From NCBI GenBank assembly GCA_016186115.1, contig JACPMK010000003.1, positions 26,470-90,469 of the forward strand: a stretch of 64,000 nucleotides of DNA, in the 5' to 3' direction. The DNA is from Candidatus Wildermuthbacteria bacterium. GTDB lineage: Bacteria > Patescibacteriota > Minisyncoccia > Minisyncoccales > UBA10102. The notes under the pieces are model-generated. The model did no database searches, was not told where the DNA came from, and saw only the letters and a program-made list of their open reading frames with translations. Positions 30,217 through 62,659 of the stretch are shown piece after piece. A program made the position numbers and the translations under genes. Numbering within the stretch: the stretch's first letter is position 1; each line of letters opens with the position of its first letter.

Positions 30217-31533
30217 ATGCGTGATATGAAAAGAATTTTAAAGAAGATCTTTCCTCCATTTATTTTGAGTTGGTACCATTTTGTATTGGCCTTTGTCGCG
30301 GCGGCGTGGTATCGGTTTCCCTCGAGAGATTTAACGGTGATTGGAGTTACGGGAACGAATGGGAAATCAACCACAGTCGATATGATCTCCCGAATTTTCG
30401 CAGAAGCAGGCATTGCGACTGCTTCTCTCTCTTCGATACGATTCCAAATCAACGAAAAGGAATGGCGCAATACGCTCAAGATGACAATGCCCGGCCCGTT
30501 TTTTGCGCAGAGATTTCTTCGCAAGGCAGTGAATGCCGGCTGCACGCATGCGGTGACGGAGGTAACTTCAGAAGGGATTCTTCAGTATCGCCACCGCTTT
30601 ATCAAATTTCATACGGCTGTGTTCACAAATTTGTCGCCCGAGCATATCGAACGGCATGGATCTTTCGAACATTATCGCCAAGCAAAAGGGGGACTATTTC
30701 AAGCCGCACAACAAGTGCATATTACGAATGGTGATGATAAAAATTCTGAATATTTTCTTCAATTTGCAGCCAGAGAAAAGTGGATATATGGTCTGAAAAA
30801 TTCGAAATCCGAAATTCGAAATCCGAAACAAATACCAAATACTAAATACCAAATATTAAATATTGAGAACATTCAAATAGAGCGAAACGGAGTAGAGTTT
30901 TTTGTAAAGGGTACTGAATTTCATCTCAAGCTCCTTGGGGAGTTTAACGCATATAACGCTTTGGCTGCAATTTGCGTTGGGCTTTCTCAAAATATTCCCT
31001 TAGAGACATGCAAAAACGCGCTCGAAAACATTGAAAAAGTGCCGGGCCGTATGGAACTGATTATCCAGAAGCCCTTTTGGGTATTTGTTGACTATGCTTT
31101 TACGCCCAATGCCCTAGAAAAAGTGTATCGGACCCTCAAAGAGTTGCAGCATATACCAAATACTAAATTGGTTTGCGTGCTCGGGGCTGCAGGCGGAGGG
31201 CGGGATAAATGGAAGCGGCCGGTATTGGGAAGGATTGCGGCATCGTATTGCGATAAAATTATTGTGACCAATGAAGATCCGTACGACGAAAATCCCACGG
31301 AAATCATTGAACAGGTGGCAGAAGGCGCCGGGGAAGAAGCAGAAAAAATCTTAGACCGCAGAGAAGCAATTGGAAAAGCATTGCACTTGGCGGGCTCGGG
31401 AGACGTCGTCGTGATAACGGGGAAGGGCAGCGAGGATTCTATTGATGTGGCCGGTGGCAAAAAAATTCCTTGGGATGATCGGGAAGTTGTTAGGGAGGAA
31501 TTTAGAAAAATCCATTCTCAAGAGACCGTATAG
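30217..31533 (+). CDS. Mur ligase family protein (MurE-like UDP-MurNAc-tripeptide synthetase) with N-terminal TM segment
   Basis: GVTGTNGKSTT P-loop, central and C-terminal Mur ligase motifs (GAAGGGRDKWKRP), hydrophobic N-terminus. Confidence 0.8.
   Translation: MRDMKRILKKIFPPFILSWYHFVLAFVAAAWYRFPSRDLTVIGVTGTNGKSTTVDMISRIFAEAGIATASLSSIRFQINEKEWRNTLKMTMPGPFFAQRFLRKAVNAGCTHAVTEVTSEGILQYRHRFIKFHTAVFTNLSPEHIERHGSFEHYRQAKGGLFQAAQQVHITNGDDKNSEYFLQFAAREKWIYGLKNSKSEIRNPKQIPNTKYQILNIENIQIERNGVEFFVKGTEFHLKLLGEFNAYNALAAICVGLSQNIPLETCKNALENIEKVPGRMELIIQKPFWVFVDYAFTPNALEKVYRTLKELQHIPNTKLVCVLGAAGGGRDKWKRPVLGRIAASYCDKIIVTNEDPYDENPTEIIEQVAEGAGEEAEKILDRREAIGKALHLAGSGDVVVITGKGSEDSIDVAGGKKIPWDDREVVREEFRKIHSQETV
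30798..30867 (+). repeat. Heptanucleotide-periodic tract (about 10 units) inside the MurE-like gene, in frame
   Basis: AAATTCG AAATCCG AAATTCG AAATCCG AAACAAA TACCAAA TACTAAA TACCAAA TATTAAA TATTGAG. Translated as NSKSEIRNPKQIPNTKYQILNIE. Confidence 0.85.
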
Positions 31534-31602: not shown

Positions 31603-31821
31603 ATGACAGGAAAGAATTTGCCCAAAAGCATACGGAAGTTTATTCGTCAAGAAAAAGCCAGAATTCGAAGGCAGATTTTTGATCCCAAAGAACAAGCCAA
31701 AGCAATCGAAGAGCTTTACCAGCGCATATATAATCAATACGGAAAATCAACAGTAAAGCAATCCAAAGAGATTCCCAATAAACCTAGGCTTGCCTTGAGC
31801 GAAGTTGAAGAGTCCCCATAG
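31603..31821 (+). CDS. Small basic protein (72 aa), uncertain
   Basis: Track ORF rich in K/R/Q. Its last 10 nt overlap the tRNA-Arg 5' end. No SD. Confidence 0.35.
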   Translation: MTGKNLPKSIRKFIRQEKARIRRQIFDPKEQAKAIEELYQRIYNQYGKSTVKQSKEIPNKPRLALSEVEESP

Positions 31822-31884
31822 TTTAACGGATAAAGCGTTGGCCTCCGAAGCCAAAGATTGGAGGTCCGATTCCTCCTGGGGACA
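31812..31884 (+). tRNA. tRNA-Arg (anticodon CCG)
   Basis: Hand-folded cloverleaf: acceptor GTCCCCA/TGGGGAC, D arm GTTT-AACGGATA-AAGC, anticodon arm TTGGC-CTCCGAA-GCCAA, T arm GGAGG-TCCGATT-CCTCC, discriminator A. 73 nt, no encoded CCA. Confidence 0.9.
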
Positions 31885-32053
31885 CGATTTGGAAGTGGAT
31901 AGCTCAAGTATTGACGAGATGACTGGAATCTGCAAAGATGTACTCTAATTCTTCCAGCACCTTGGCACATATCTTTTGAGCGCCTTTTTGTTCAGGAGAT
32001 TGTGTTCGTGGCTAAAAGGGCGCTCAAAACAGCAGCGGGAGAAAGGGAGCAAG

Positions 32054-41991: not shown

Positions 41992-43737
41992 ATGCAAAAT
42001 CAAAAACTCGCCTCTATTCTCGCAACAATCTCTGCGTATCTGGCAATGGATGATGTTCCATTCAAGCCCCAAGCATATGAGCAGGCCGCAACTGCAGTGC
42101 AGGCGCTTTCAGAAGACGTGGAGGATATCTACAGAAAAGAGGGCTTGAAGGGCCTTGAACGGATTCCCGGCGTAGGAAAAAGTATTGCAGAGAAAATTGA
42201 AGAATATATAAAGACCGGTAGGATGCAATATTATGAAGAGTATCGCAAAAAAATCCCGGTGGATGTGGAAGAACTCATGGCAATTGAGGGAATAGGGCCA
42301 AAGACCGTGAAGACGCTGTACCAGCATTTAAAGATCAAAAATCTTGGGGATTTGGAACGGGCAGCAAAAGCAGGAAAAATCCGAAAGCTTCCTCATTTTG
42401 GTGAGAAAACTGAAAAGAATATTTTGCAAGGGATCGAATTCGTCAAAAACTCCAGCGGTAGAAAATTAATAGGATATATTTATCCTTATGTGGAAGAGAT
42501 TGTCGCGCTTTTAAAAAATTCCGGCCTTGTGGAGGAGGTAATTGCCGCAGGATCTTTTCGCCGCATGAAAGAAACCGTGGGAGATGTTGATATTTTGGTT
42601 ACAACCGGGCGCGATAACGAAAAAGAGATTGTGGAATATTTTCTTTCCCATGTCCCCTATGTAAAAATTTGGGGAAGGGGCTCGACCAAAGTTTCTATAC
42701 GCACCACGCAGGACTTTGATATAGACATACGCATTCTCCCCCAGAAGGCTTATGGGGCCGCTCTCCAATATTTTACTGGTTCAAAAGAGCATAATGTGAA
42801 AGTAAGAACGTATGCGTTGCAAAAGGGATTGAAGGTAAGCGAGTACGGGGTATTCCGGGGGAGAAAGCTTGTTGCGGGCAAGACCGAAGAAGAAGTATAC
42901 AAAGCCCTTGGATTGCCGTATATTGAGCCCGAATTACGCGAAGATCAGGGAGAATTTGAAGCAGCCCTCCGACTGGAACCCCCAAAGGTTATCCCATACA
43001 ATGCTCTGCGAGGAGATCTTCAGGTGCAAACAAATTGGACCGATGGCGCCCATTCTATCGAACAGATGGCAGAGGCAGCAACGAAACAGGGCTTGGAGTA
43101 TATCGCAATTACTGATCATACCAAGGATCTTGCCATGACCGGCGGCTGCGACGAAAAAAAGCTTTTGCGGCAGATGACAGAGATCGATGCAATAAATGTA
43201 AAATTAAAAATTAAAAATTTAACATTCAGAATTTTAAAGGGGGCGGAGGTGAATATAAGAAGAGATGGTACGCTTGATATTGCAGATGAGGTGTTGGCTA
43301 AACTTGATGTGGTAGGGGCTTCGGTGCATTCGTTGTTTAAAATGAATAAAAAAGACATGACCGAAAGGATTATCCGGGCCATGCGCAATCCTCATGTTGA
43401 TATTTTATTCCATCCCACCGGACGGATTATTCAAAAGCGTGATCCTTACGAATTAGATATGGACGAGATTATCAGGGTTGCAAAAGAGACGGGGACGATT
43501 CTGGAAGTAAATGCATATCCCGAACGTCTTGACCTTAAAGATACTGATGTTCGAAAGGCAGTGAATGCAGGGGTAAAGCTTGTGATTGACTCTGATGCCC
43601 ACCATGCCGATCATTTTCGATTTCTGCGCTTTGGGATTGCGCAGGCAAGGAGGGGCTGGGCAGAAGCAAAAGATGTAGTCAATACCCTTCCCTTAAAGCA
43701 GTTTCTTGTTTCATTAAAAGATCGAAAAAAGATCTGA
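41992..43737 (+). CDS. polX: Family X DNA polymerase with C-terminal PHP domain (PolX)
   Basis: HhH motifs (GVGKSIAEKI, GIGPKTVK), catalytic GSFRRMKETVGDVDILV, PHP motifs (ITDHT, HPTGR, DSDAHH). Confidence 0.9.
   Translation: MQNQKLASILATISAYLAMDDVPFKPQAYEQAATAVQALSEDVEDIYRKEGLKGLERIPGVGKSIAEKIEEYIKTGRMQYYEEYRKKIPVDVEELMAIEGIGPKTVKTLYQHLKIKNLGDLERAAKAGKIRKLPHFGEKTEKNILQGIEFVKNSSGRKLIGYIYPYVEEIVALLKNSGLVEEVIAAGSFRRMKETVGDVDILVTTGRDNEKEIVEYFLSHVPYVKIWGRGSTKVSIRTTQDFDIDIRILPQKAYGAALQYFTGSKEHNVKVRTYALQKGLKVSEYGVFRGRKLVAGKTEEEVYKALGLPYIEPELREDQGEFEAALRLEPPKVIPYNALRGDLQVQTNWTDGAHSIEQMAEAATKQGLEYIAITDHTKDLAMTGGCDEKKLLRQMTEIDAINVKLKIKNLTFRILKGAEVNIRRDGTLDIADEVLAKLDVVGASVHSLFKMNKKDMTERIIRAMRNPHVDILFHPTGRIIQKRDPYELDMDEIIRVAKETGTILEVNAYPERLDLKDTDVRKAVNAGVKLVIDSDAHHADHFRFLRFGIAQARRGWAEAKDVVNTLPLKQFLVSLKDRKKI
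43201..43235 (+). repeat. Heptanucleotide-periodic tract inside polX
   Basis: AAATTAA AAATTAA AAATTTA ACATTCA GAATTTT, translated KLKIKNLTFRIL. Confidence 0.6.
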
Positions 43738-45261: not shown

Positions 45262-45265
45262 AAAG

Positions 45266-45614
45266 TGGAGGTGGCGGGTACCGACCCCGCGTCTGGACAG
45301 GTCAAGGAATACAATCTTCAGGCATAGTCCGGTTGAGGTTGAGAAAGGGTTAAAACCGGACAAAATCCCTTTCCCTTAAGATCGAAAGGTTCAATAGTTC
45401 TCCTGATCTTAAAGAGAGCTATCTATCTCGATGGTTGGCACCTATTCCGTATACCGAGAATCAGCGGATAGGCGGCCTAAGCATTTTATGCGTAGGCAAG
45501 TGCCCTTTGAGGGGCAAATGGATTGGCAGTTGTTACTGCTCCAAGTTTTGAAGAGTTCTTGGAACTCTGTCTGCAGCATTCCTGTTGCTGTCCATCGAAA
45601 CCCTGTTCACCCCC
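45266..45614 (-). ncRNA. ssrA: tmRNA (SsrA), 349 nt
   Basis: 5' end is GGGGGTGAACAGGGTTTCGATGG and 3' end is GACGCGGGGTCGGTACCCGCCACCTCCA. Acceptor GGGGGUG/CACCUCC has the G3-U pair. Tag ORF (45527..45486) encodes ANPFAPQRALAYA plus stop. Adjacent to smpB. Confidence 0.85.
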
Positions 45615-45620
45615 TTATAC

Positions 45621-46067
45621 TTATGATGCTCTTAACGCTCGTTTCATTTCGCGCTCCGCTTCTCTGCGTCGGATGGTCTCGCGCTTATCATACTGTTTTT
45701 TGCCTTTTGCAAGAGCAAACTCAATCTTAATTTGAGCGTTTTTATTATACAATCGAAGCGACACCAAAGTCAATCCTCTCTCTTTTGCCTTGCCCATGAG
45801 ATAGCTTAGTTCTTTTTTGTGCAAGAGCAGCTTGCGGGAGCGTTGCGGATCATAGCTTGAAAGGGCATTTCTCGGCTGATAGGGGGGAATAGTCACGCCA
45901 ACAAGGAAAAGTTCATTTCCTCGGGGAACGATGTAGGATCCGGCCAACTGTGCCCGTCCTAATTTGATTGATTTTACCTCTTGTCCATTCAATACAATAC
46001 CCGCCTCGAACTTCTCGAGGATTTCATAATTAAAATACGCTTTTCGATTTTCTGCAAAATCTGTCAT
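45621..46067 (-). CDS. smpB: SsrA-binding protein SmpB
   Basis: NRKAYFNYEILEKFEAGIVL...KSIK...LLLHKKE is classic SmpB. Confidence 0.95.
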   Translation of the reverse strand: MTDFAENRKAYFNYEILEKFEAGIVLNGQEVKSIKLGRAQLAGSYIVPRGNELFLVGVTIPPYQPRNALSSYDPQRSRKLLLHKKELSYLMGKAKERGLTLVSLRLYNKNAQIKIEFALAKGKKQYDKRETIRRREAEREMKRALRAS

Positions 46068-46109: not shown

Positions 46110-47861
46110 ATGGTCCGAGTGGAAATTGAGAGATTAATCAAACAAGCACTTGAAGGCCTTCAAAAAGCGCACCAATTGGAGAATTTTGAGCTGGGCGAAA
46201 TTCCCTTGGAGCATCCGCAAAATCCAGAGCATGGGGATTATGCCACGAGCGTGGCCTTTGCATTGGCAAAGCAACTTGGCAAAAATCCAAGCGAAGCAGC
46301 TGAATTAATTGCTTCGCGTTTCACGCCTCGTGCTTCAGAAATTCTGGACGAGGTCAAGGCAGTTGGCGGCTTCGTGAATTTTTCCATCTCCAAAAAGTAT
46401 CTTTTCCAAGAGCTTAACGCCGTGATCCAGCAAAAAGAACAGTATGGAAAGATCGATTCGCTGAAGGGGAAAAAAATCATGGTGGAGTATGCTCATCCTA
46501 ATACTCATAAAGAAATGCATATTGGGCATATGCGCACTTTAATTACGGGTGAGGCCTTGGCCCGTATTCTTGGTTTGTGCGGGGCAAAGGTTTTCCGGGC
46601 AAATTATCAGGGAGACATCGGGCCGCATGTTGCCAAAGCAATTTGGGGTACGCAAAAGATTCTCAAAGAGCGCAACCTTACATGGGCAAAGGCAGAGAAA
46701 TTGAGTTTGAGCGATAGGGCGCATTTGCTTGGCGAGGGATACGTGAAGGGTAACAGGGAATACGAGGCAAATAAAGAAGAAATTGACGAACTCAATGCAA
46801 AGCTTTATCGGCGAGATACGAAAATAATGTCGATCTATCGGCAGACGCGCGAATGGAGCTTGGATTATTTTTCTGCAATCTATAAACAATTTGGCACGAA
46901 GTTCGACAAGCTCTATTTTGAGAGCCAAGTTGCAAGTATCGGGAAAAATATTGTTCTCAAAAATATCGGGAGAGTATTTGAAAAAAGCGAAGGCGCATTT
47001 ATTTTTGACGGCGAAAAATATGGCCTTCATAAGCGCGTGTTCATTACGCAAGACGGAAATCCTACGTACGAAGGAAAAGAAATGGGATTGGCTTTTGTGC
47101 AGCACAAAGACTTTCCTTTTGATCTCAATGTGCATGTGGTGGCGAACGAACAGACGGGATATTTCAAAGTGGTAATGAAGGCCCTCGAACTAATAGACAA
47201 GAAATTCGCAGGAAAGGAATATCACTTGCCCATGGGAATGGTGCAATTGGTCGGTCTTAAAATGTCTTCCCGTACAGGCGTTGTGATTACGGTGGATGGG
47301 TTGCTCGTCCAAGTACAAGATGCGTTGCAAAAATTGATTACGAATAGGAAGCTTTCTCAAAAAGAAAAAAAACGGATTGCAGAAATAGGAGCGATGGCTG
47401 CCGTAAAGTATTCGATACTCAAAACAGATACAAAATCCAATGTAGTATTCGATATGAAAAAATCTGTGAGTTTGGATGGGGACTCTGGCCCGTATCTTCT
47501 TTATACGTATGCGAGGTGTAGAAGTATATTAAGAAAAGCACGAAATTCGAAATTCGAAATTCGAAATAAATCCCAAATTTTAAATTCAAAATTCTCAAAA
47601 GAAGAACTCGATGTTTTGCGAACGATTTATAAATTTCCCGAAGTGGTCAGAGAGGCGGCAGAGAAATTTTCACCAAGCATTATTTGCAGCTATATTTTTG
47701 ATGTGGCGCAAAAATACAATCTTTTTTACCATACGTCCCCCGTGTTGCAGGCAGAGACAAAAGAGCAAAAAGCATTTCGTCTTCTGCTCACCGGAGCAGT
47801 TGCCCAATTGATCAAAAATAGTTTATCCCTCTTGGGCATCCAAACTCTGGAGCGAATGTAA
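46110..47861 (+). CDS. argS: Arginyl-tRNA synthetase
   Basis: HPNTHKEMHIGH (HIGH), MSSRTG (KMSK-type), and a C-terminal DALR anticodon-binding domain ending in M. Confidence 0.95.
   Translation: MVRVEIERLIKQALEGLQKAHQLENFELGEIPLEHPQNPEHGDYATSVAFALAKQLGKNPSEAAELIASRFTPRASEILDEVKAVGGFVNFSISKKYLFQELNAVIQQKEQYGKIDSLKGKKIMVEYAHPNTHKEMHIGHMRTLITGEALARILGLCGAKVFRANYQGDIGPHVAKAIWGTQKILKERNLTWAKAEKLSLSDRAHLLGEGYVKGNREYEANKEEIDELNAKLYRRDTKIMSIYRQTREWSLDYFSAIYKQFGTKFDKLYFESQVASIGKNIVLKNIGRVFEKSEGAFIFDGEKYGLHKRVFITQDGNPTYEGKEMGLAFVQHKDFPFDLNVHVVANEQTGYFKVVMKALELIDKKFAGKEYHLPMGMVQLVGLKMSSRTGVVITVDGLLVQVQDALQKLITNRKLSQKEKKRIAEIGAMAAVKYSILKTDTKSNVVFDMKKSVSLDGDSGPYLLYTYARCRSILRKARNSKFEIRNKSQILNSKFSKEELDVLRTIYKFPEVVREAAEKFSPSIICSYIFDVAQKYNLFYHTSPVLQAETKEQKAFRLLLTGAVAQLIKNSLSLLGIQTLERM
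47543..47598 (+). repeat. Heptanucleotide-periodic tract (about 8 units) inside argS, in frame
   Basis: AAATTCG x3, then AAATAAA TCCCAAA TTTTAAA TTCAAAA TTCTCAA. Translated NSKFEIRNKSQILNSKFSK in a variable linker of ArgRS. Confidence 0.85.
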
Positions 47862-48433: not shown

Positions 48434-51400
48434 ATGGAAGTTAATTTTCCGAAGCTGGAGGAAAGAATATTAAAGCATTGGAAGGCGATTAGGGCATTTG
48501 AAAAATCGGTACAAATGCGAAGGGGATCGCCTCGTTTTGTTTTTTACGAAGGTCCTCCCACAGCCAATGGCGCCCCGGGCATCCATCACGTGCTTTCCCG
48601 TGCCTTTAAAGATATTATTCTGCGCTACAAAACCATGGCTGGATTTTACGTTGAGCGAAAAGCTGGCTGGGATACGCATGGTCTCCCCGTGGAATTGCAA
48701 ATTGAAAAAAAACTTGGATTGAAGTCAAAAAAGGATATCGAGAAATACGGCATCGCGAAATTCAATGCAGAGTGCAAAAAATCTGTCTGGGAATACAAGA
48801 AAGAATGGGAAAGTTTAACAGAGCGCATCGGATTTTGGCTCGACATGGAGCATCCCTACATCACTTATGAAACTCCATATATCGAAACTCTGTGGTCAAT
48901 TATTAAACAGTACTGGCAAAAGGGATTGCTCTATAAAGATTACAAGGTTGTGCCTTATTGTCCGCGCTGCGGCACTTCGCTTTCTTCTCATGAGCTAGCC
49001 CAAGGGTATAAAACCGTAAAAGAACCCTCGGTATATGTAAAATTCAAAATTCGAGCGGAAGATTTTCTTAAACTACCGACTACTAACCATAAACTACAAA
49101 CTGTTTATCTTTTGGCGTGGACTACAACTCCATGGACCCTGCCTTCGAATGTGGCATTGGCCGTCCATCCGGATATCTCTTATGTGGTTGCCAAACTCAA
49201 TAATGAGCATTACATCGTTGCACAAGAACGGGCAAAGCATGTGCTCGGCGAGACCTATGAAATTGCAGAAACGCTAAGGGGGAGCGATTTGGTGGGGGTT
49301 TCTTATGTCCCCCTATATCAATTTGAGCAGAGTGAAAAAGGGAAAAAAGTGTGGGAAGTAGTTCCTGCGGATTTTGTATCAACCAAAGAAGGCACCGGCA
49401 TCGTGCATACCGCAGTGGCCTATGGAGTTGATGATTTTGAGCTGGGCAAAAAACAGAATCTTGCAATGTTTCATTTCGTAACAGAAGAAGGAAAATTTCA
49501 TGACAAGGTAAAACCATTTGCCGGACTTTTTGTAAAAGATGCCGATCCCTTGATTATGGAAGATTTGAAAAAGCGCAGTACTCTTTTCAAAGAAGAGCTC
49601 TATGAGCATGAGTATCCTTTTTGCTGGAGATGCGACACGCCCCTGTTGTATTACGCGAAAGAGAGTTGGTTTTTGAATATGCAAAGGGTAAAAGATCAGT
49701 TGCTGGCGAACAATGAAAAAATTCATTGGATTCCTGCGTATATTAAGGAAGGGAGATTTGGCGAATGGCTTAAAGAGGTACGCGACTGGGCGTTTTCGAG
49801 AGAAAGATATTGGGGTACGCCCTTGCCTATCTGGCAATGCAAAGGATGCGTCCATCAAGAAACAATCGGCTCTCTCGATGATTTGAGGAAACAAAAATTC
49901 TCAACAAATACCTATTATATATTGCGTCATGGTGACTCCGAACGCCAGAAAACAAACGTCATGTCTTCTTGGCCAGAGAAAAAGCCATTACCCCTTACCT
50001 CAAGAGGAGTACGTGAAATTCAGGCGAGAGCAAAACAATTAAAAAAGAAAAAAATTGATTTCATTTTTTCTTCAGATATACTTCGAACGCAGCAAACCGC
50101 AGAAATCATAGGCAAAGAATTGGGCATTGCGCCAATTTTTGATAAGCGTTTGCGAGAGTGGGATATGGGCATATTGAATGGCAAGCATATCAAAGAATAC
50201 GGAAAAATGTTCGGCAGAAAAGGCGAGACCGCTTTGGAGCATTACCTGCGTAGATTTGAGGAGCCCGTACCAAAAGGAGAAAGCTGGAAAGATGTGCAGA
50301 AGCGATTGTATGGTTTGCTGCAAGAGCTTGAGAAAAAGTATGACGGGAAAACAGTTCTTGTTATCGGCCACGAGTTGCCGCTTACGCTTTTGGAGGGTCT
50401 TGCGAAGGGATTGTCGAGAGAAGAAGTTATCAAATTCCGGGAGAAAAAAGCATTGCATACCGCAGAATTGCGCAAGTTGTCAGTAACCCTGCTTCCTTAT
50501 AACGATGATATGGAAGTGGATCTTCATCGCCCCCACATCGATGCCGTTACTTTTTTTTGTTCTCAATGCGGCAAGCAAATGGAACGAGTAAAAGATGTGG
50601 TGGATGTATGGTTTGATTCTGGGGCAATGCCCTTTGCGCAAAATCCGAAATTCGAAATCCGAAATCCGAAATTAGCGCCTCCGGCGCTGTATCCGGCGGA
50701 TTATATTGTGGAGGGAATTGATCAAACACGGGGATGGTTTTATACCTTGCTTGCAATCGCCACGTTATTGGGTTTTGGCACGCCTTTTCGAAACGCAATT
50801 TCCTTGGGTCATATTCTGGATGAAAAGGGGGAAAAGATGTCCAAGACCAAAGGCAACGTGGTAAGCCCTTGGGATATGATTTCAAAGTATGGAGCAGATG
50901 CAGTGCGATGGTATTTCTATACCATGAATCATCCCGGAGACCCAAAATTATTTTCTGAAAGGGATATTCAGCAGACGCTTCGAAAATTCCTTTTTACGCT
51001 TTGGAATTCTTTTGTTTTTTATCAAATGTATAAACCTTCTTCCAATGCGAAGATTCCTGTCAAAATTCAAACCAGCCATATTCTTGATCGCTGGATTCTT
51101 TCGCGACTGCAATTGCTTATTGAGGAGATGACGAAACGCATCGATTCCTATGACGTCACAGGGGCGGCAAGAGCGCTGGAAGGTTTTGCGATCGATGATT
51201 TTTCACTTTGGTATATCCGAAGATCGCGTGTAAGATTTCAGAATCCAAGTTCTCCAAGAGAAAAACAAGAGGCGCTTACAACATTGCAGTATACTCTGGC
51301 GGAAGTAGCGAAGCTGGCAGCTCCTTTCGTGCCCATGATTAGCGAACATATCTATCAGGAACTTCAGCAGAAACGCAGCTCTTCTATGCAAAGTGTTCAC

Positions 51401-51949
51401 TGGAAAGATTGGCCGAAGTCCCAGCGGCAGTTTCGTAATCTGCCCCTTGAAGAAGAAATGAACAAGGCGCGAGAGGTCGTTGCCAAGGCGCTTGCCGAAC
51501 GCGCAAAAGCAGGGATCAAGGTGCGCCAGCCCCTCGCTTTGCTGAAAATCCGAAATCCGAAATCCGAAGTTCCAAACGAATTACTCAACGTAATTAAGGA
51601 TGAGGTGAATGTGAAAGAAGTTGTGTTTGATAAAAATCTCAAGGCAGAGGTTGAGTTGGATACGCGCCTCACTCCAGCGCTGAAAGAAGAAGGGATGCTG
51701 CGGGATATTCTGCGTTCCATACAGGATATGCGAAAAACAGCGGGGTACAAGCCACGGCATTCCATTGTGCTTAGTTTTGCCGGAGATGTTTTTCTTGGGC
51801 AGCTCTTGTTAAAGAACAGGATGGTGTTGAAGCGGGGCGTGGGAATAAAAAAGTTTATCCAGGGAGAAAAACCAAAGCATGTATTTGATATCGAACGCGA
51901 ATTTGAAATGGAAGGCAAGAGAATTTGGCTCGGCATAAAAAAAGCATAG
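48434..51949 (+). CDS. ileS: Isoleucyl-tRNA synthetase (type 2-like) with an inserted histidine-phosphatase domain
   Basis: PPTANGAPGIHHV (HIGH region), GWDTHGLP, WTTTPWTLPSN, CP1 editing region, KMSKTKGN, DQTRGWFY. ATG at 48434 (MEVNFPKLEE). Confidence 0.95.
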   Translation: MEVNFPKLEERILKHWKAIRAFEKSVQMRRGSPRFVFYEGPPTANGAPGIHHVLSRAFKDIILRYKTMAGFYVERKAGWDTHGLPVELQIEKKLGLKSKKDIEKYGIAKFNAECKKSVWEYKKEWESLTERIGFWLDMEHPYITYETPYIETLWSIIKQYWQKGLLYKDYKVVPYCPRCGTSLSSHELAQGYKTVKEPSVYVKFKIRAEDFLKLPTTNHKLQTVYLLAWTTTPWTLPSNVALAVHPDISYVVAKLNNEHYIVAQERAKHVLGETYEIAETLRGSDLVGVSYVPLYQFEQSEKGKKVWEVVPADFVSTKEGTGIVHTAVAYGVDDFELGKKQNLAMFHFVTEEGKFHDKVKPFAGLFVKDADPLIMEDLKKRSTLFKEELYEHEYPFCWRCDTPLLYYAKESWFLNMQRVKDQLLANNEKIHWIPAYIKEGRFGEWLKEVRDWAFSRERYWGTPLPIWQCKGCVHQETIGSLDDLRKQKFSTNTYYILRHGDSERQKTNVMSSWPEKKPLPLTSRGVREIQARAKQLKKKKIDFIFSSDILRTQQTAEIIGKELGIAPIFDKRLREWDMGILNGKHIKEYGKMFGRKGETALEHYLRRFEEPVPKGESWKDVQKRLYGLLQELEKKYDGKTVLVIGHELPLTLLEGLAKGLSREEVIKFREKKALHTAELRKLSVTLLPYNDDMEVDLHRPHIDAVTFFCSQCGKQMERVKDVVDVWFDSGAMPFAQNPKFEIRNPKLAPPALYPADYIVEGIDQTRGWFYTLLAIATLLGFGTPFRNAISLGHILDEKGEKMSKTKGNVVSPWDMISKYGADAVRWYFYTMNHPGDPKLFSERDIQQTLRKFLFTLWNSFVFYQMYKPSSNAKIPVKIQTSHILDRWILSRLQLLIEEMTKRIDSYDVTGAARALEGFAIDDFSLWYIRRSRVRFQNPSSPREKQEALTTLQYTLAEVAKLAAPFVPMISEHIYQELQQKRSSSMQSVHWKDWPKSQRQFRNLPLEEEMNKAREVVAKALAERAKAGIKVRQPLALLKIRNPKSEVPNELLNVIKDEVNVKEVVFDKNLKAEVELDTRLTPALKEEGMLRDILRSIQDMRKTAGYKPRHSIVLSFAGDVFLGQLLLKNRMVLKRGVGIKKFIQGEKPKHVFDIEREFEMEGKRIWLGIKKA
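49069..49103 (+). repeat. Heptanucleotide-periodic tract in ileS (TAAACTA type)
   Basis: TAAACTA CCGACTA CTAACCA TAAACTA CAAACTG, translated LKLPTTNHKLQT just before WTTTPWTLP. Shares the 14-mer ATAAACTACAAACT with 61785-61798. Confidence 0.75.
49900..50510 (+). other. Histidine phosphatase (phosphoglycerate-mutase-like, branch 1) domain embedded in IleRS
   Basis: YYILRHGDSERQ (RHG motif), SSDILRTQQTAEII, DKRLREWDMGILNG, PKGESWKDVQKRL, VLVIGHELPL. Inserted between ...ETIGSLDDLRKQKF and DLHRPHID.... Confidence 0.8.
50641..50675 (+). repeat. Heptanucleotide tandem repeat in ileS (AAATYCG x5)
   Basis: AAATCCG AAATTCG AAATCCG AAATCCG AAATTAG, translated NPKFEIRNPKLA. Confidence 0.85.
51546..51573 (+). 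repeat. Heptanucleotide tandem repeat in ileS (AAATCCG x3 + 1 degenerate)
   Basis: AAATCCG AAATCCG AAATCCG AAGTTCC, translated KIRNPKSEVP. Confidence 0.85.
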
Positions 51950-58788: not shown

Positions 58789-60278
58789 ACAAAAAATTCT
58801 ATATCACAACTGCAATTCCCTATGTGAATGCCCGCCCGCACATCGGGCATGCTTTGGAATTTATTCAGGCCGATGTCATTGCGCGCTACCATCGTCTGAA
58901 GGGTGAGGAGGTTTTGCTTTTGTCTGGAAGCGATGAGAATGCGCTTAAAAATGTTCAAGCCGCCCAGAGCGCCGGAGTCCCTGTGCAGCAATTTATTGAT
59001 GAAAACGCCGTGCTTTTTGTCGAGTTGGCCAATGCGCTTGGCGTGCAATTCGACGTATTTCAAAAGGGAAGCAGCAAAGAACACCATCTCTCCAGTCAGA
59101 AACTGTGGCAACTTTGCGCCGAAAATGGGGATATCTACAAAAAATCCTACGAAGGTTTGTACTGCACGGGATGCGAAGCATTTTATACTCCAGATGAGCT
59201 TGATGCGAATCAGGAATGCCTTGAGCATCCCGGCCGAAAACTCGAGAGCGTCTCCGAAGAAAATTATTTTTTCAAACTTTCACGATATCAGGACAAAATC
59301 ATTAGTGTATTGGAAAGCGATGAATTGGAAATTGTTCCCGCGACCCGAAAAAATGAAATGCTCGCTTTTTTGAAACAGACACTGCAAGATATTAGCATTT
59401 CGCGCACCAATGAACGCGCCAAAAATTGGGGCGTGCCAGTTCCGGCCGATGATTCTCAAAGAATGTATGTTTGGTTCGATGCCCTCAATATGTATCAGTC
59501 GGGAGTTGGATTTGGATTAGATGAACAAAAGCATAACAAGTGGTGGCCGGCAGATATTCATGTGATTGGCAAGGGGATTATTCGTTTTCACGCGGTGTAC
59601 TGGCCGGCATTTCTTTTGTCGGCTGGGTTGCCTTTGCCCAAGAAAATCTTTGTTCATGGCTATATCACTTCAAGCGGACAAAAAATGTCAAAGACACTGG
59701 GAAATGTGGTTGATCCTTTTCCGCTTGTCGAAAAATATGGAAGTGGTGCAGTACGTTACTTTTTCTTGCGCGAAATTCCGCCGACAGAAGACGGCGATTT
59801 TTCCTATGAAAAATTCGAAGAGAGGTATAATTCTGACCTTGCGAGTGGTTTGGGAAATCTTGTCGCGAGAGTACTCGCGCTTGTAGGAAAAATAAATCCG
59901 AAATCCTTTGACAAGCTCAGAATCCCGAGCGAAGTCGAGGGACAAATTCAAAGTCCAAAACTGCGGGAAATTATAAATGCAGCGAGAGAAAAGGTGGATA
60001 CGGCGTTGGAAAAGTTTCAGTTTCAGGATGCGTTGATTGCCATTTGGGATGTGATTCATTTTTGCGACAGATATATTGAGGAGAAAAAACCGTGGTCTTT
60101 CGACTTCGCTCAAGATAAACCCGATCAAAAAGAAGTAATCGACGATTTATTGCTAGCAATTTTAGCAATCGGCACGCTTCTCAAGCCATTTCTCCCCGCG
60201 ACTTCAGAGAAAATAGCGAATCAATTGCAACATGGAAAAGGCGATCCTCTCTTCCCGCGTCTTGACAGAAATGTATGA
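58785..60278 (+). CDS. metG: Methionyl-tRNA synthetase (short form)
   Basis: PYVNARPHIGH (HIGH), KMSKTLGN, zinc knuckle CTGCEAF, C-terminal anticodon-binding helices. Confidence 0.95.
   Translation: MNKKFYITTAIPYVNARPHIGHALEFIQADVIARYHRLKGEEVLLLSGSDENALKNVQAAQSAGVPVQQFIDENAVLFVELANALGVQFDVFQKGSSKEHHLSSQKLWQLCAENGDIYKKSYEGLYCTGCEAFYTPDELDANQECLEHPGRKLESVSEENYFFKLSRYQDKIISVLESDELEIVPATRKNEMLAFLKQTLQDISISRTNERAKNWGVPVPADDSQRMYVWFDALNMYQSGVGFGLDEQKHNKWWPADIHVIGKGIIRFHAVYWPAFLLSAGLPLPKKIFVHGYITSSGQKMSKTLGNVVDPFPLVEKYGSGAVRYFFLREIPPTEDGDFSYEKFEERYNSDLASGLGNLVARVLALVGKINPKSFDKLRIPSEVEGQIQSPKLREIINAAREKVDTALEKFQFQDALIAIWDVIHFCDRYIEEKKPWSFDFAQDKPDQKEVIDDLLLAILAIGTLLKPFLPATSEKIANQLQHGKGDPLFPRLDRNV
59894..59941 (+). 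repeat. In-frame composite insertion in metG: two AAATCCN heptamers plus an imperfect palindrome
   Basis: AAATCCG AAATCCT, then CCTTTGAC (59905-12) / GTCGAGGG (59934-41) pairing with two G-U, and an inner GCTC/GAGC. Translated NPKSFDKLRIPSEVEG. Confidence 0.55.
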
Positions 60279-60289
60279 AAAAGTATACT
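60262..60289 (+). promoter_or_regulatory. Sigma70-type promoter overlapping the metG 3' end (cassette A)
   Basis: TTGACA (60262-67), 16-nt spacer, TATACT (60284-89). Confidence 0.6.
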
Positions 60290-60298
60290 ACACTAATC

Positions 60299-60379
60299 AT
60301 GAGCAGCCAGATCAGAAAAGGATTTTATTTCTTCTTTTTTACCAGCCCCGGCGAAGAGCGAGGTCGTTATTCTTGTTAA
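60299..60379 (+). CDS. Candidate near-leaderless leader peptide with a Phe/Tyr run (26 aa)
   Basis: MSSQIRKGFYFFFFTSPGEERGRYSC. The ATG is about 3-4 nt from the predicted TSS. The F/Y codons 60323-60340 are followed directly by ACCAGCCCC, which can pair with the terminator 3' arm. Confidence 0.35.
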   Translation: MSSQIRKGFYFFFFTSPGEERGRYSC

Positions 60380-60405
60380 TCGAAAACATCTAACCAAGAA
60401 ATCAC

Positions 60406-60441
60406 CCAGCCCTTCGTCAAACGAGGGGCTGGTTTTCTTTT
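60406..60441 (+). terminator. Rho-independent terminator / attenuator in the leader of the 117-aa ORF
   Basis: CCAGCCCTTCG-TCAAA-CGAGGGGCTGG (11 bp, one G-U) followed by TTTTCTTTT. Confidence 0.7.
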
Positions 60442-60542
60442 CGCCCTGCGGCGAAAAGACGATGTTTTCTGATGAGAGCTCCAACACATTCGGGTTTCTC
60501 ACCAGAGAAGATCTTAACTATCTCTGGTTAAGGAGGGAAACA

Positions 60543-60896
60543 ATGGCCGAACATCGTATGGGTATAATACAGGGTAGCACTGGAACGCTCAAAGAGGTTC
60601 TTGGAATGCTTGGGGTGTCGATAACAAAATTCGCATTCCAAGGGCATAATTCGTCGGACTCGTGTGGACAGCAAGGGGTGCATCCTCCTCACGTACTGGA
60701 GGAGTATAGACATTATTGCATTGGGAAAGCTGGCTGTGTGGGAGAGGATGTGCTTATCGTAATTGCCGAAGAACGGCAACTGTACCCAGCACGTGCAAAA
60801 GGGATTTACTTCCTCCTTCCAAGAAATGCATTCCCCTCTTTCCGGGATCCGCTTATGCAAGTTGGCGTAGGGCAAGGTCCTGGATATACCGGCTAA
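60543..60896 (+). CDS. Orphan protein, 117 aa, SD-led (P3)
   Basis: AAGGAGG (60530-36), 6-nt spacer, ATG at 60543. Cys/His-rich middle (SCGQQGVHPPH...YRHYCIGKAGCVGED). No family recognised. Confidence 0.55.
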   Translation: MAEHRMGIIQGSTGTLKEVLGMLGVSITKFAFQGHNSSDSCGQQGVHPPHVLEEYRHYCIGKAGCVGEDVLIVIAEERQLYPARAKGIYFLLPRNAFPSFRDPLMQVGVGQGPGYTG

Positions 60897-60917
60897 ATCT
60901 GGAAAGTACGGCCTATA

Positions 60918-60953
60918 GGGCGGAGCTTTACCGAGCTCCGCCCGTTTTCTTTT
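60918..60953 (+). terminator. Rho-independent terminator
   Basis: GGGCGGAGCT-TTACCG-AGCTCCGCCC (10 bp) followed by GTTTTCTTTT. Confidence 0.8.
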
Positions 60954-60998
60954 GACAAGCAGTTGACAACCCTGTTTTCAATTTGCTATGGTTATAAT
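60952..60998 (+). promoter_or_regulatory. Promoter of cassette B
   Basis: Consensus TATAAT at 60993-98. Two TTGACA copies (60952-57, 60963-68) are spaced too far away for a canonical -35, so the -35 is ambiguous. Confidence 0.45.
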
Positions 60999-61008
60999 AC
61001 TTGAGCTT

Positions 61009-61095
61009 ATGAAGAAAATCTCCCAAACAATGTTGCTTTTGTTGGTCTTGGTAACTAATCCTACTCGGTTGGGAGATTTTGATCGCAGAAGTTAA
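61009..61095 (+). CDS. Candidate near-leaderless leader peptide with a Leu/Val run (28 aa)
   Basis: MKKISQTMLLLLVLVTNPTRLGDFDRRS. The TTG CTT TTG TTG GTC TTG GTA codons are in phase. The ORF spans attenuator segments 1 and 2. Confidence 0.5.
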   Translation: MKKISQTMLLLLVLVTNPTRLGDFDRRS

Positions 61096-61121
61096 AAATA
61101 CAAAATTCCTTGCGACAACGT

Positions 61122-61153
61122 AACCTCCCAACCGCGGGAGGTTTCTTCTTTTG
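61122..61153 (+). terminator. Rho-independent terminator (segments 3:4 of the cassette B attenuator)
   Basis: AACCTCCC-AACCGC-GGGAGGTT followed by TCTTCTTTTGTCTT. Confidence 0.75.
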
Positions 61154-61327
61154 TCTTGAGGAGTAAGGAAAAGTTTATTCCTTATTCCCCAGGCCAGAAG
61201 AGTATGTCTGGTTTGGAGCAGCAAGTTCACCTACCATAAGCGTGAGCGTGCTGTAGGAAGATAATCCTGCGATCGGGTAACATCTGTGAGCAGGATAATC
61301 CTCTGAATTGCTAAGGAGGAGAACGAG

Positions 61328-61387
61328 GTGGTTGAGAAGACCCCCCACTTTCTTGGCTGCTTCGTTCTCTTCCCGCGCAATGTTTAG
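61328..61387 (+). CDS. Possible 19-aa micro-ORF, SD-led
   Basis: AAGGAGG (61313-19), 8-nt spacer, GTG at 61328. Encodes MVEKTPHFLGCFVLFPRNV. Confidence 0.25.
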   Translation: MVEKTPHFLGCFVLFPRNV

Positions 61388-61410
61388 CACATTGTATGAA
61401 GGAGGGTGAG

Positions 61411-61584
61411 ATGTACTTTGGTTCGCACATTTGCTGTCTGGATGCCTTTTTCATAGGGGAGGACGGCAGTGGGGCGGTGAAAAAACTTAAAGAGGCGCCA
61501 CCGCCGCCACCAGAAAACGAAAAGGAGAAACTTCTTCCTGCTGACGAAGACCTGCAAGGTCAGCAGGACGAGAAATCATCCTAG
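61411..61584 (+). CDS. Orphan protein, 57 aa, SD-led (P4)
   Basis: AAGGAGGG (61399-406), then ATG at 61411. Encodes MYFGSHICCLDAFFIGEDGSG...APPPPPENEKEK... with an acidic tail. Confidence 0.45.
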   Translation: MYFGSHICCLDAFFIGEDGSGAVKKLKEAPPPPPENEKEKLLPADEDLQGQQDEKSS

Positions 61585-61594
61585 CTCTCCCATG

Positions 61595-61647
61595 CGGCTC
61601 CTTTTGTTTGCGCATCAACGCGCAGCAGGAGGAGCCGTCCATTTTTT
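61595..61647 (+). terminator. Compound hairpin terminator
   Basis: CGGCTCCT (61595-602) / AGGAGCCG (61630-37) with inner TGCGC/GCGCA, followed by TCCATTTTTT. Confidence 0.6.
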
Positions 61648-61649
61648 AC

Positions 61650-61678
61650 TTGACATTATCCCTTGAGCTTACTAGTAT
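61650..61678 (+). promoter_or_regulatory. Sigma70-type promoter of cassette E
   Basis: TTGACA (61650-55), 17-nt spacer, TAGTAT (61673-78). Confidence 0.55.
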
Positions 61679-61695
61679 AAAATATACTCTTCAGC

Positions 61696-61788
61696 ATGGA
61701 CATTATTTTACAGATCAGACAAGCGATTATTGGCATTATTACCATTATTAGCCCCACCAAACGAGGGAGTTTCTTGCAGCAGCTATAA
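61696..61788 (+). CDS. Candidate leader peptide with an Ile run (30 aa)
   Basis: MDIILQIRQAIIGIITIISPTKRGSFLQQL. Four ATTATT pairs plus one ATC are all in frame with the ATG. Confidence 0.45.
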   Translation: MDIILQIRQAIIGIITIISPTKRGSFLQQL

Positions 61789-61813
61789 ACTACAAACTAC
61801 TAACTAAAATCTG
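61786..61813 (+). repeat. Heptanucleotide-periodic tract (TAAACTA type) between micro-ORF and terminator
   Basis: TAAACTA CAAACTA CTAACTA AAATCTG. Confidence 0.7.
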
Positions 61814-61814
61814 C

Positions 61815-61845
61815 ATCAGCTCCCTCGCGGGGGCTGATTTTTTTG
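61815..61845 (+). terminator. Rho-independent terminator (cassette E)
   Basis: ATCAGCTCCC-TCGC-GGGGGCTGAT (10 bp, one G-U); the run of seven T (61838-61844) begins at the last stem T. Confidence 0.8.
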
Positions 61846-61928
61846 AGCATAGTGCATGGGCTTGATTCTCCAATCTCATTCACTGCGCTCAATACCAGAG
61901 AGTGCAGTAATAGCACGAGGAGGGTGTA

Positions 61929-62111
61929 ATGAAAAGGGAAGAGAAGTCCGATATTATTGAAGAAATCGTGACGGTTCTCGCGGGAGGAGATTTTGCCGGA
62001 GGCGAGAAACAGCGCCGCAAAAATCGAAAAGATAAGCTGGAGAAGAAGAGGTGGGGGAAAGCTGCTGCTGACGCAGGAGCTCTGCCTGCCAAAGACAGTC
62101 TTGATTTGTAA
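61929..62111 (+). CDS. Orphan protein, 60 aa, SD-led (P5), highly charged
   Basis: GAGGAGGG (61916-23), then ATG at 61929. Encodes MKREEKSDIIEEIVTVLAGGDFAGGEKQRRKNRKDKLEKKRWGK.... Confidence 0.5.
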   Translation: MKREEKSDIIEEIVTVLAGGDFAGGEKQRRKNRKDKLEKKRWGKAAADAGALPAKDSLDL

Positions 62112-62136
62112 TTTATGTTTCTCTTCCTTAGGTTTC

Positions 62137-62177
62137 GGGGGCTCGCTGAATGGTTCGCGAAGTGAGCCCCCTTTTTT
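62137..62177 (+). terminator. Rho-independent terminator
   Basis: GGGGGCTCGC / GTGAGCCCCC (10 bp, one G-U), 15-nt loop, followed by TTTTTT. Confidence 0.8.
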
Positions 62178-62192
62178 GTGGAAATATTCCTC

Positions 62193-62221
62193 TTGACGAT
62201 ATTTTGCAAAGAGATTATTCT
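62193..62221 (+). promoter_or_regulatory. Sigma70-type promoter of cassette G
   Basis: TTGACG (62193-98), 17-nt spacer, TATTCT (62216-21). Confidence 0.5.
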
Positions 62222-62281
62222 AGGTATTGTTTTAAGAATCACTGCACCTTAAACAGAGCATTAGTTGAAGGGAGAAGGAGA

Positions 62282-62590
62282 ATGGCAAAGACAGCTGTCC
62301 TCCTTAGGAAGGGGGATTGGCAGAATGGCAGGACGGGAGATTACAGTAAAATCGTAGAGCTGTTGAAGATTCTTCACAGGGAGTTCAAGGTTCAGCGGCT
62401 CTTACTTGATCAGGAAGTTCTTGATGCGTTGCCTTCAAAACTTCGTGATGTTAAGCTTGTGTTTCTTGTTCCCTCCGGAGGCCAGAAGCCACAAACTCCG
62501 GAAGGGATCAAGATAACAATAGCTGAACTTCCAGAGAATTTCTCGAAGATGGAATTCATCGCAGCCGTCTTTCCCGATTTCCCACAATAG
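62282..62590 (+). CDS. Orphan protein, 102 aa, SD-led (P6)
   Basis: GGAGAAGGAG, then ATG at 62282. Encodes MAKTAVLLRKGDWQNGRTGDYSKIVELLKIL.... No family recognised. The longer track start at 62150 was rejected. Confidence 0.55.
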   Translation: MAKTAVLLRKGDWQNGRTGDYSKIVELLKILHREFKVQRLLLDQEVLDALPSKLRDVKLVFLVPSGGQKPQTPEGIKITIAELPENFSKMEFIAAVFPDFPQ

Positions 62591-62618
62591 CCCGTCCACT
62601 AGGCCGGGCTATTTTTTT
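62588..62618 (+). terminator. Rho-independent terminator
   Basis: TAGCCCGTCC-ACTA-GGCCGGGCTA (one mismatch) followed by T7. The stop codon lies in the stem. Confidence 0.75.
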
Positions 62619-62659
62619 GTCTTCTTTATTATTCTTGCTTTTTGAGTACAATAAAACAT

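Follow-up and report, generated by a model that had tools for sequence, protein, structure and literature searches.

Short heptanucleotide arrays inside ileS and other genes of a Candidatus Wildermuthbacteria genome and its Paceibacteria relatives

Tandem arrays of 7-nucleotide (nt) units occupy coding DNA in ileS, the gene for isoleucyl-tRNA synthetase (IleRS), on a contig of Candidatus Wildermuthbacteria (GenBank JACPMK010000003.1, assembly GCA_016186115.1), of which we analyzed a stretch of 64,000 nt (positions 26,470 to 90,469 of the forward strand; hereafter, the window). Three heptamer tracts had been proposed in this gene, and two of them, tracts 2 and 3, are genuine repeats that lie far above chance. 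Such tracts are not specific to ileS: those in this gene exemplify a phenomenon seen throughout the genome and the clade. We consider it probable that they are slippage-type heptanucleotide microsatellites in coding DNA, seeded by proto-repeats and filtered by selection.

The clade-wide extent was demonstrated in 160 loci around IleRS relatives, taken from species-representative genomes and metagenomes, all of which belong to Paceibacteria-type members of the candidate phyla radiation (CPR); the best relative among these fetched loci was 63-67% identical. After removal of near-duplicates, 132 sequences (2.19 Mb) were searched for arrays with at least three copies and at most one mismatch, with triplet shuffles as the control. 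Arrays of period 7 numbered 140, against 0.7 in the shuffles, which is about 200 times chance. The corresponding counts were 122 against 85 for period 5, 49 against 11.4 for period 6, 4 against 0 for period 8, and 1 against 0 for period 9, and no period-7 arrays were found in 150 kb of E. coli K-12. Instead of the intergenic placement expected of heptamer simple sequence repeats (SSRs), 123 of the 140 period-7 arrays (88%) lay within long open reading frames (ORFs), the coding fraction of the sequence being 0.915. The arrays were all 21-38 nt long, and their sense strand was 51% A, with A exceeding T in 111 arrays and falling below it in 10. At least 47 distinct units were represented, and the units within a genome mostly differed, pairs with at most one mismatch making up 22% of pairs within genomes versus 13% between genomes (p ~0.02). 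Independent assemblies contained identical arrays (L002/L123, L027/L121, and L017/L082).

In the window itself, a scan for matches at lag 7 found six arrays, against 0.03 in triplet shuffles, and tracts 2 and 3 of ileS were among them (Table 1). Tandem Repeats Finder (TRF) placed tract 2 at 50641-50672 (period 7, 4.6 copies, 92% matches, peptide QNPKFEIRNPKLA), with 24/28 matches at lag 7, and tract 3 at 51546-51568 (3.3 copies, 100% matches, peptide KIRNPKSEVPN). The sequence AAATYCGAAATYCG, with one mismatch or fewer, occurred 13 times in the window, all on the + strand, where 0.5 occurrences would be expected. Both tracts have three or more head-to-tail copies at a level above chance, as befits an SSR, and tract 1 alone does not. 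A first-pass annotation made from the sequence of the window had listed three heptamer tracts in ileS; its peptides and adjoining conserved motifs proved correct on translation, and tracts 2 and 3 were borne out, but tract 1 is not significant alone. For tract 1, TRF reported 49070-49102 with period 7, 4.7 copies, 65% matches, and a score of 31; the lag-7 matches (17/28) were under the threshold of the window scan, and the pattern TAAACTA-N7-TAAACTA was absent. By itself, tract 1 is indistinguishable from chance and is a decayed array at best, a status that is plausible because orthologues have clear arrays at this site, AAATTCAAAATTCG is located 16 nt upstream, and an array of the AAACTAC unit is present at 61783-61806. 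Rfam and tRNA scans of the window gave no match overlapping tracts 1-3.

The ileS product has exactly the sequence of MBI2644406.1, encoded on a 236-kb contig of a Candidatus Wildermuthbacteria metagenome-assembled genome (MAG), and the source organism is a groundwater member of the Paceibacteria/Parcubacteria within the CPR. The protein matches PDB entry 1ILE with E = 3.6e-258, and Pfam recognizes tRNA-synt_1, His_Phos_1, Anticodon_1, and DUF5915 in it. Arrays recur at the same positions of IleRS among species: following SVYVKF (site 1, the site of tract 1), in the segment bounded by MPFAQ and FPADY (site 2, with tract 2), following RQPLxxL (site 3, with tract 3), following DWP, and following ELYQ. 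The units at these sites vary by species and include AAATCCG, AAAGTCA, AAAAATC, AAATCTC, AATTTCC, AAGTTTC, AAGATAC, AAAAATT, AAAAGTT, and GAATTAC, while the ileS frame is intact through every array in the ~155 orthologues checked. Sites in PolX and in arginyl-tRNA synthetase (ArgRS) likewise have recurrent arrays with differing units. In PolX, L002 and L027 carry arrays at the site orthologous to that of the window, and L018 has an array elsewhere in the protein; at the argS site of the window, arrays are found in L022/L089 and L055.

The first-pass annotation also counted four lineage-specific insertions in ileS, namely the three tracts and a phosphatase domain, and named an IleRS alignment and mapping onto structures as the means to check them. 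An alignment of 81 IleRS orthologues upheld this count in part. Site 1 is length-variable, with a loop of 22-52 amino acids (aa) in orthologues and 36 aa in the window; the tract 1 region is 7 aa longer than in 1ILE and 12 aa longer than in 8C8W, and the window has the tract 1 segment in common with L001 and L017. Tract 1 is therefore acceptable as an insertion, in the sense of a hypervariable loop. At site 2, the usual Paceibacteria state is AQWHYPFENKKLIDxGxQFPADY. The relatives L009, L003, L002, and L017 kept HWPF and added an array, and the median length is 44 aa with an array versus 37 aa without, that is, 7 aa, 21 nt, or three units, which hints that three units were added at once. In the window, tract 2 replaces the HYPFENKxLID segment, and the site is back at 37 aa, the family mode, because the adjacent AHWPFAQ was lost. 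Tract 2 is accordingly an insertion in the historical sense only, offset by a 7-aa loss, and its region shows a net gain of 2 aa versus T. thermophilus IleRS. Site 3 (IKVRQPL to EVNVK) is constant in length: 34 aa in the window, 31-37 aa in nearly all of the orthologues, and a median of 33 aa with or without an array, with no notable gap between the tract 3 region and PDB 8C8W. Tract 3 is not an insertion, as it overwrites the ancestral segment L-K-I-K-N-x-K-L-K in place, with K, I, N, and K retained.

Nor does the phosphatase domain, which is complete and splits the halves of the IleRS catalytic core, qualify as a lineage-specific insertion. It has no counterpart in 1ILE (query residues 487-695 unmatched), and among 8000 proteins retrieved at E <= 1e-100 it is annotated in 120 of the 120 best IleRS homologues. 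From these annotations, it looks like a fixed, clade-wide feature of IleRS in Paceibacteria-type CPR bacteria rather than a genome-specific one.

An AlphaFold2 model of IleRS built on 68 sequences (mean predicted local distance difference test, pLDDT, 87.8; predicted template modeling score, pTM, 0.80) placed tracts 1 and 2 in coil. Tract 1 is predicted to form coil at residues 212-223 (pLDDT 68), tract 2 a 19-residue coil at residues 736-754 (pLDDT 62-68, the minimum of the whole protein), and tract 3 the end of a strand, residues 1034-1039, and a turn (pLDDT 80-90). The remaining recurrent array sites of IleRS also fall in lower-confidence coil in the model. Other low-complexity DNA was seen in the loop of tract 2: L001 has there, at ~12215-12460, a perfect 21-nt (7-aa) repeat, SGQALRL x3.5, that is rich in GC and has no relation to the A-rich heptamers, and L015 has a different insert of 30 aa. 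Judging from these sequences, this loop tolerates low-complexity DNA of several types.

Conservation at site 2 is at the level of DNA, not of the peptide. In the codons AAT CCG AAA TCC GAA ATC CGA AAT CCG AAA, synonymous positions are identical in the window, L011, L009, and L003, and in the conserved flanks of the site they differ among the same four sequences. The differences within the array are C/T or G/A at unit positions and change amino acids (S/F, P/S, R/Q). Peptide-level selection as the cause of this conservation was rejected, as synonymous sites are invariant and amino-acid-changing variants are tolerated. L149, with an IleRS 46% identical, carries the tract 2 unit at site 2 in another phase. 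The local codons themselves provide 7-nt proto-repeats: V-K-F-K-I coded GTA AAA TTC AAA ATT is one already, and others are K-F-K-I (AAA TTC AAA ATT), L-K-I-K-N (TTAAAAATTAAAAAT), and F-E-N (TTCGAAAAT). Arrays at site 1 in L040, L030, L049, L005, and L088 begin within the conserved V-K-F-K-I codons and extend into the loop, and the array unit tracks the local codons, AAG TTT CAA GTT giving AAGTTTC in L005 and L088. A perfect AAAAATT array would bring an in-frame TAA, and the arrays of this type that were seen are interrupted.

Between close strains, the arrays are identical in most pairs of at least 99.5% identity, and all in-gene arrays in such pairs are identical except for one in-frame cassette swap. 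This swap was found at site 3 between L136 and L040 (99.6% identical): a sharply bounded cassette contains AAATCCG x3.5 in one and GAATTAAG repeats around the palindrome CCTGCCGGCAGGCAGG in the other, with 36 differences in 65 nt and at least 150 nt identical on each side. The remaining differences between the two are likewise clustered in short patches. In L145 and L144 (99.6% identical), an array located between ileS and its neighboring gene differs by exactly one 7-nt unit, which shows that slippage by a unit occurs at places free of any reading-frame constraint. The intergenic region of L145 (8150-8272) contains two heptamer arrays in inverted orientation, one AAAGNCA-type and then one TCTTTCG-type, that could pair as a long hairpin; the second of these is the one that differs from L144. 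L147 and L149 (97.6% identical) have different units at sites 2 and 3, inside 100-300-nt patches of raised divergence, as would be left by recombination mosaics, and L094 carries AAAACCC x4.5 where L013 (91.6% identical) has no array. A frameshift at an array as the cause of the split ileS in L017 was rejected, the break being an N-gap beside a long palindrome. This palindrome, at ~5400-5450 and shared with L082, is a perfect one of 38 nt (CCTAGGCTCGGCCTAGGAGCTCCTAGGCCGAGCCTAGG) by the assembly gap, in a variable loop at about aa 868-882 of the window protein.

GC-rich palindromes accompany a minority of the arrays. Six palindromes of the form CCTGCC..GGCAGG occur within 20 kb of L040; three of them lie inside heptamer arrays within genes (Table 1). 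They belong to a family, CCTGCC(TGCC/TCGCC)GGCAGGCAGG, several copies of which are in genes and encode LPAGRQ or PRRQAG; by its sequence, this family of L040 and L043 looks like a repetitive extragenic palindromic (REP)-like element living in coding DNA. In the argS array of L089, a 16-nt palindrome stands in place of the center of one unit, compared with L022, and palindromes at site 2 of L081, L084, and L017 are similar to AGCGCC-TCC-GGCGCT of the window. A composite element with a GC hairpin was rejected as a general explanation: the association is real but concerns 8% of arrays.

Besides ileS, the window contains arrays in a Mur-ligase gene, a PolX/PHP gene, and argS, a weak two-unit repeat in metG that is possibly a proto-array, and the AAACTAC array, which belongs to the unit family of tract 1 (Table 1). 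The arrays of the Mur-ligase gene and argS, and weakly the metG repeat, are of the AAATYCG family to which tracts 2 and 3 belong. The AAACTAC array is situated in a stretch of ~2.3 kb that has no ORF >150 aa and no Rfam match at the gathering score, and that also contains a hairpin with a 10-bp stem. A tRNA-Arg(CCG) gene lies 3' of the Mur-ligase gene, and a transfer-messenger RNA (tmRNA) gene (90.5 bits) adjoins an ORF that, judged by eye from its sequence, we take to be a candidate smpB; these are unremarkable features.

Table 1. Positions of the arrays, palindromes, and neighboring features in the window and in two related loci.
Feature	Sequence	Position	Strand	Description
Compound array, Mur-ligase gene	window	30798..30864	+	AAATYCG x4.4 then AAATACY x4.7 (KNSKSEIRNPKQIPNTKYQILNI)
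tRNA-Arg(CCG)	window	31812-31885	+	
AAAATTA-type array, PolX/PHP gene	window	43194..43233	+	peptide INVKLKIKNLTFRI
tmRNA	window	45263-45614	-	
ORF adjoining tmRNA	window	45621-46067	-	candidate smpB
Array in argS	window	47536..47593	+	AAATTCG x3.9 then degenerate units (KARNSKFEIRNKSQILNSKF)
ileS	window	48434..51949	+	1171 aa; type-2 (T. thermophilus-like) isoleucyl-tRNA synthetase with inserted His_Phos_1 domain
AAATTCAAAATTCG proto-repeat	window	49040..49053	+	codons of conserved strand V-K-F-K-I-R; one-mismatch match
Tract 1	window	49069..49103	+	degenerate, AAACTAC-like, plausibly a relic; encodes LKLPTTNHKLQT; loop before WTTTPW
Histidine-phosphatase (PF00300) domain in IleRS	window	49916..50440	+	aa 495-669
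Tract 2	window	50641..50675	+	AAATYCG x4.6; encodes NPKFEIRNPKL(A)
GC-rich palindrome AGCGCC-TCC-GGCGCT	window	50674..50688	+	directly 3' of tract 2; encodes (L)APPAL
Tract 3	window	51546..51573	+	AAATCCG x3.3 + AAGTTCC; encodes KIRNPKSEVP
Two-unit AAATCCGAAATCCT, metG	window	59894..59907	+	INPKSF
Stretch with AAACTAC array	window	60280-62640		
Hairpin	window	60918-60943		
AAACTAC x3.4 array	window	61783..61806	+	stretch without long ORFs
Palindromes	L040	8835-8850, 10648-10668, 13025-13040, 16719-16738, 17905-17925, 19050-19070		
Palindrome	L043	7792-7812		

We infer a history in which every step leading to the present arrays is conditional. A/T-rich codons for alternating Lys and hydrophobic residues would form 7-nt proto-repeats unaided, and a slippage-type process of replication or repair, in which a 7-nt register is favored, would extend and homogenize them. 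Selection would then purge arrays that cause a frameshift, a stop codon, or a disturbance of the fold, so that the survivors would be 21-38 nt long, A-rich on the sense strand, and confined to few permissive loops, encoding hydrophilic peptides of K/N/E/I/R/S/P. Such a filter would explain why the same sites of IleRS, ArgRS, and PolX are hit repeatedly across species. The arrays may later decay by point mutation, as at tract 1, or pass between strains by short-patch recombination. As 7 and 3 share no factor, three units make 21 nt, or 7 aa, and the same cyclic peptide is encoded in all frames; a 7-nt unit also means that only changes of three units keep the frame. Direct support from the observations exists for the preference for a 7-nt period, the placement in coding DNA and in loops, the repeated occurrence at orthologous loops, the conservation at the DNA rather than the peptide level, and the +21-nt step at site 2.

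Several points weigh against seeded slippage. A two-unit proto-repeat cannot slip three units in one step, single-unit steps in an essential gene are frameshifts, and no intermediates in array growth were seen. A clean +7-aa step is found only at site 2; the difference is ~3.5 aa at site 1 and 0 at site 3, and the length difference between L094 and L013 is +5 aa. AAATCCG occurs at unrelated sites in distant lineages (L149, L136, L099), the sharing of units within genomes is slightly raised, and GC-rich hairpins lie 15 nt or less from 11 of the 140 arrays versus 4.4 +/- 2.1 by chance (2.5x). The unit switch between L136 and L040 is not a product of simple slippage. In addition, no closer strains of the window organism were found: the exact-protein cluster consists of the same MAG and one Logan copy that starts from an upstream TTG, and genome and metagenome contigs reach at most 63% aa identity. 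Paceibacteria might have a distinct process that works in a 7-nt register and repeatedly rewrites permissive loops of essential proteins with short heptamer arrays, either by adding three units or by replacement at constant length, with the unit changed between 99.6%-identical strains. We regard such a process as rather unlikely; the candidates for it would be one particular polymerase synthesizing reiteratively where forks stall or break, or a micro-element of which GC palindromes form part. A single genome-specific template unit, in the manner of telomerase or a retroelement, was rejected, since units within a genome mostly differ.

A mobile or actively written small element, that is, an array with or without a GC palindrome that a trans-acting enzyme, or templated repair, inserts or copies into permissive loops with the frame kept, would account for AAATYCG at 5-6 loci of the window in a single orientation, for one unit at different sites in distant genomes, and for the sharply bounded cassette swap between 99.6%-identical strains. 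It would also fit the six palindromes of L040, three of them embedded in in-gene arrays, the palindrome of L089 that replaces exactly one unit of the argS array of L022, and the raised number of nearby hairpins. We nevertheless judge it unlikely, because the units number at least 47, most arrays within one genome are unlike each other, the units follow local codons, and 92% of arrays have no nearby hairpin; terminal inverted repeats, target duplications, and conserved flanks were all absent, and the differences between L147 and L149 and between L040 and L136 sit among patches of clustered single-nucleotide polymorphisms, like ordinary recombination mosaics. Usefulness of the arrays, either as basic flexible surface peptides (e.g., for extra contacts with tRNA or a partner in the aminoacyl-tRNA synthetases) or as signals in DNA or RNA, read by a heptad-binding protein or causing translational pausing, seems quite improbable. 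The array at site 2 does keep its length and sequence among species with only ~60% identity in IleRS, A-richness of the sense strand is constant and the encoded peptides are hydrophilic and basic, the array genes of the window include three aminoacyl-tRNA synthetases, PolX, and a Mur ligase, and proteins that read 7-nt repeats exist, such as CspB, discussed in PMC4679880. However, close relatives have unrelated units or no array at orthologous sites (L013 vs L094, L147 vs L149), the changes tolerated within arrays are amino-acid-changing, the model leaves tracts 1 and 2 unstructured and at its lowest confidence, filters on stop codons and hydrophobicity would by themselves yield an A-rich sense strand, and the units differing within a genome provide no common binding motif.

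The remaining alternatives fare worse. That the tracts arise by chance from the composition of A/T-rich coding sequence, or from assembly error, is very improbable overall: tract 1 alone is within chance, and peptides rich in Lys, Ile, Asn, and Phe do yield 7-nt near-periodicity, but for tracts 2 and 3 this account is refuted by the tracts themselves and by the clade excess over shuffles that keep triplets, and the arrays shared by independent assemblies speak against it as well. Contingency (phase-variation) repeats, in which changes in unit number would switch ileS or give alternative products by frameshift, are close to refuted. Every 7-nt unit gained or lost shifts the frame, and a one-unit polymorphism exists in a related genome, yet that change is intergenic; ileS is single and essential and its arrays are mid-gene, the frame is intact throughout the orthologues, in-gene arrays are the same in pairs of at least 99.5% identity bar the one in-frame swap, and the ileS break of L017 is an N-gap. 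No on/off (out-of-frame) alleles were seen in strain pairs.

Among known systems, heptanucleotide SSRs are reported to be the most over-represented class of long SSRs in bacteria, and polymerase slippage over a contact of ~7 nt has been proposed as their cause (Mrazek, Guo & Shah 2007, summarized by PMC4679880 and PMC4692102). Those described are found mainly between genes, and SSRs with a unit length indivisible by 3 are reported as under-represented in ORFs (PMC4679880, PMC4692102). The arrays reported here resemble them in having few-copy head-to-tail units of many kinds and in the predominance of period 7 over 6, 8, and 9. They differ in that 88% are in genes, including essential ones, that they recur at orthologous loops, and that they do not exceed 38 nt. 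A search of a database of 5.8 billion proteins with (KSEIRNP)x6 found only 21 short hypothetical ORFs, e.g., from Acidobacteriota. The proteins P0006-P0013, from other metagenomes including an Acidobacteriota MAG, correspond to long AAATCCG arrays encoding (NPKSEIR)n with 4-6 units, so the heptamer AAATCCG is not confined to CPR bacteria; these long arrays probably sit between genes and have little bearing on the short in-gene arrays.

Rickettsia palindromic elements (RPEs) were reportedly described by Ogata and colleagues in 2000 as selfish DNA inside protein-coding genes. The likeness lies in repetitive DNA placed in-frame in conserved, even essential, genes of a reduced genome at positions compatible with the fold, and the variable loops of the 81-sequence alignment together with the coil predicted at tracts 1 and 2 point to in-frame residence at surface positions here as well. 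RPEs, in contrast, are dispersed copies of one palindromic family of 100-150 bp, while the present tracts are 21-38-nt arrays with many units and no element body. Nothing like the dispersed, conserved palindromic element of RPEs or MITEs (miniature transposable elements with inverted repeats) was found, as there are no shared flanks, hairpins occur at 11 of 140 arrays, and the window has one 15-nt palindrome. The TAACTGA repeats of Beggiatoaceae and the short tandemly repeated repetitive (STRR) heptamers of cyanobacteria (PMC4679880), as well as the GGGNATC repeats of Xanthomonas and Nostoc (PMC4692102), share with our arrays the presence of tandem heptamers at many loci per genome, variable in sequence and length among close relatives. 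Those families have one or a few dominant units that lie between genes, often near start or stop codons, whereas here the units within a genome mostly differ and 88% of arrays are in ORFs. TAACTGA also holds stop codons in the forward orientation, and the arrays here comprise dozens of stop-free, A-rich units.

In Borg elements, every in-ORF repeat has a unit length divisible by three (PMC9879509). Borg amino-acid tandem repeats are similar to the present arrays as fast-evolving repeats that add disordered K/E/I-rich segments with the ORF intact; by contrast, the unit here is 7 nt, each single-unit change breaks the frame, and period 7 (n=140) prevails over periods 6 (n=49) and 9 (n=1). Contingency loci of host-adapted pathogens resemble our arrays as SSRs in coding sequence whose unit length three does not divide, but here the arrays are short, lie mid-gene, and belong to essential housekeeping genes. 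In the literature, we found no description of coding heptamer arrays in CPR bacteria or Parcubacteria, only the work on SSRs, STRRs, TAACTGA repeats, RPEs, and Borgs.

Essential genes are expected to lose any repeat with a unit length indivisible by three, as each change of a unit is a frameshift. In Paceibacteria loci, such repeats are ~200-fold enriched without depletion in genes, return at the same loops of aminoacyl-tRNA synthetases and PolX, and turn over between close strains. The in-gene placement, with essential genes included, and the recurrence at orthologous loops set them apart from the described class of heptamer SSRs. If a process that rewrites loops in a 7-nt register did exist, it would add a source of strain-level diversity, not described before, on the surfaces of housekeeping enzymes. 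If the arrays are slippage-type microsatellites, a mutational bias would write low-complexity loops into conserved proteins of streamlined genomes, which would account for part of the odd insertions in CPR proteins, and these bacteria would be a natural setting in which to ask why slippage in bacteria favors 7 nt. It would also call for caution when CPR proteins are aligned, placed in phylogenies, or annotated, because a peptide such as KSEIRNP that is shared by unrelated proteins would then reflect convergence at the DNA level, not homology.

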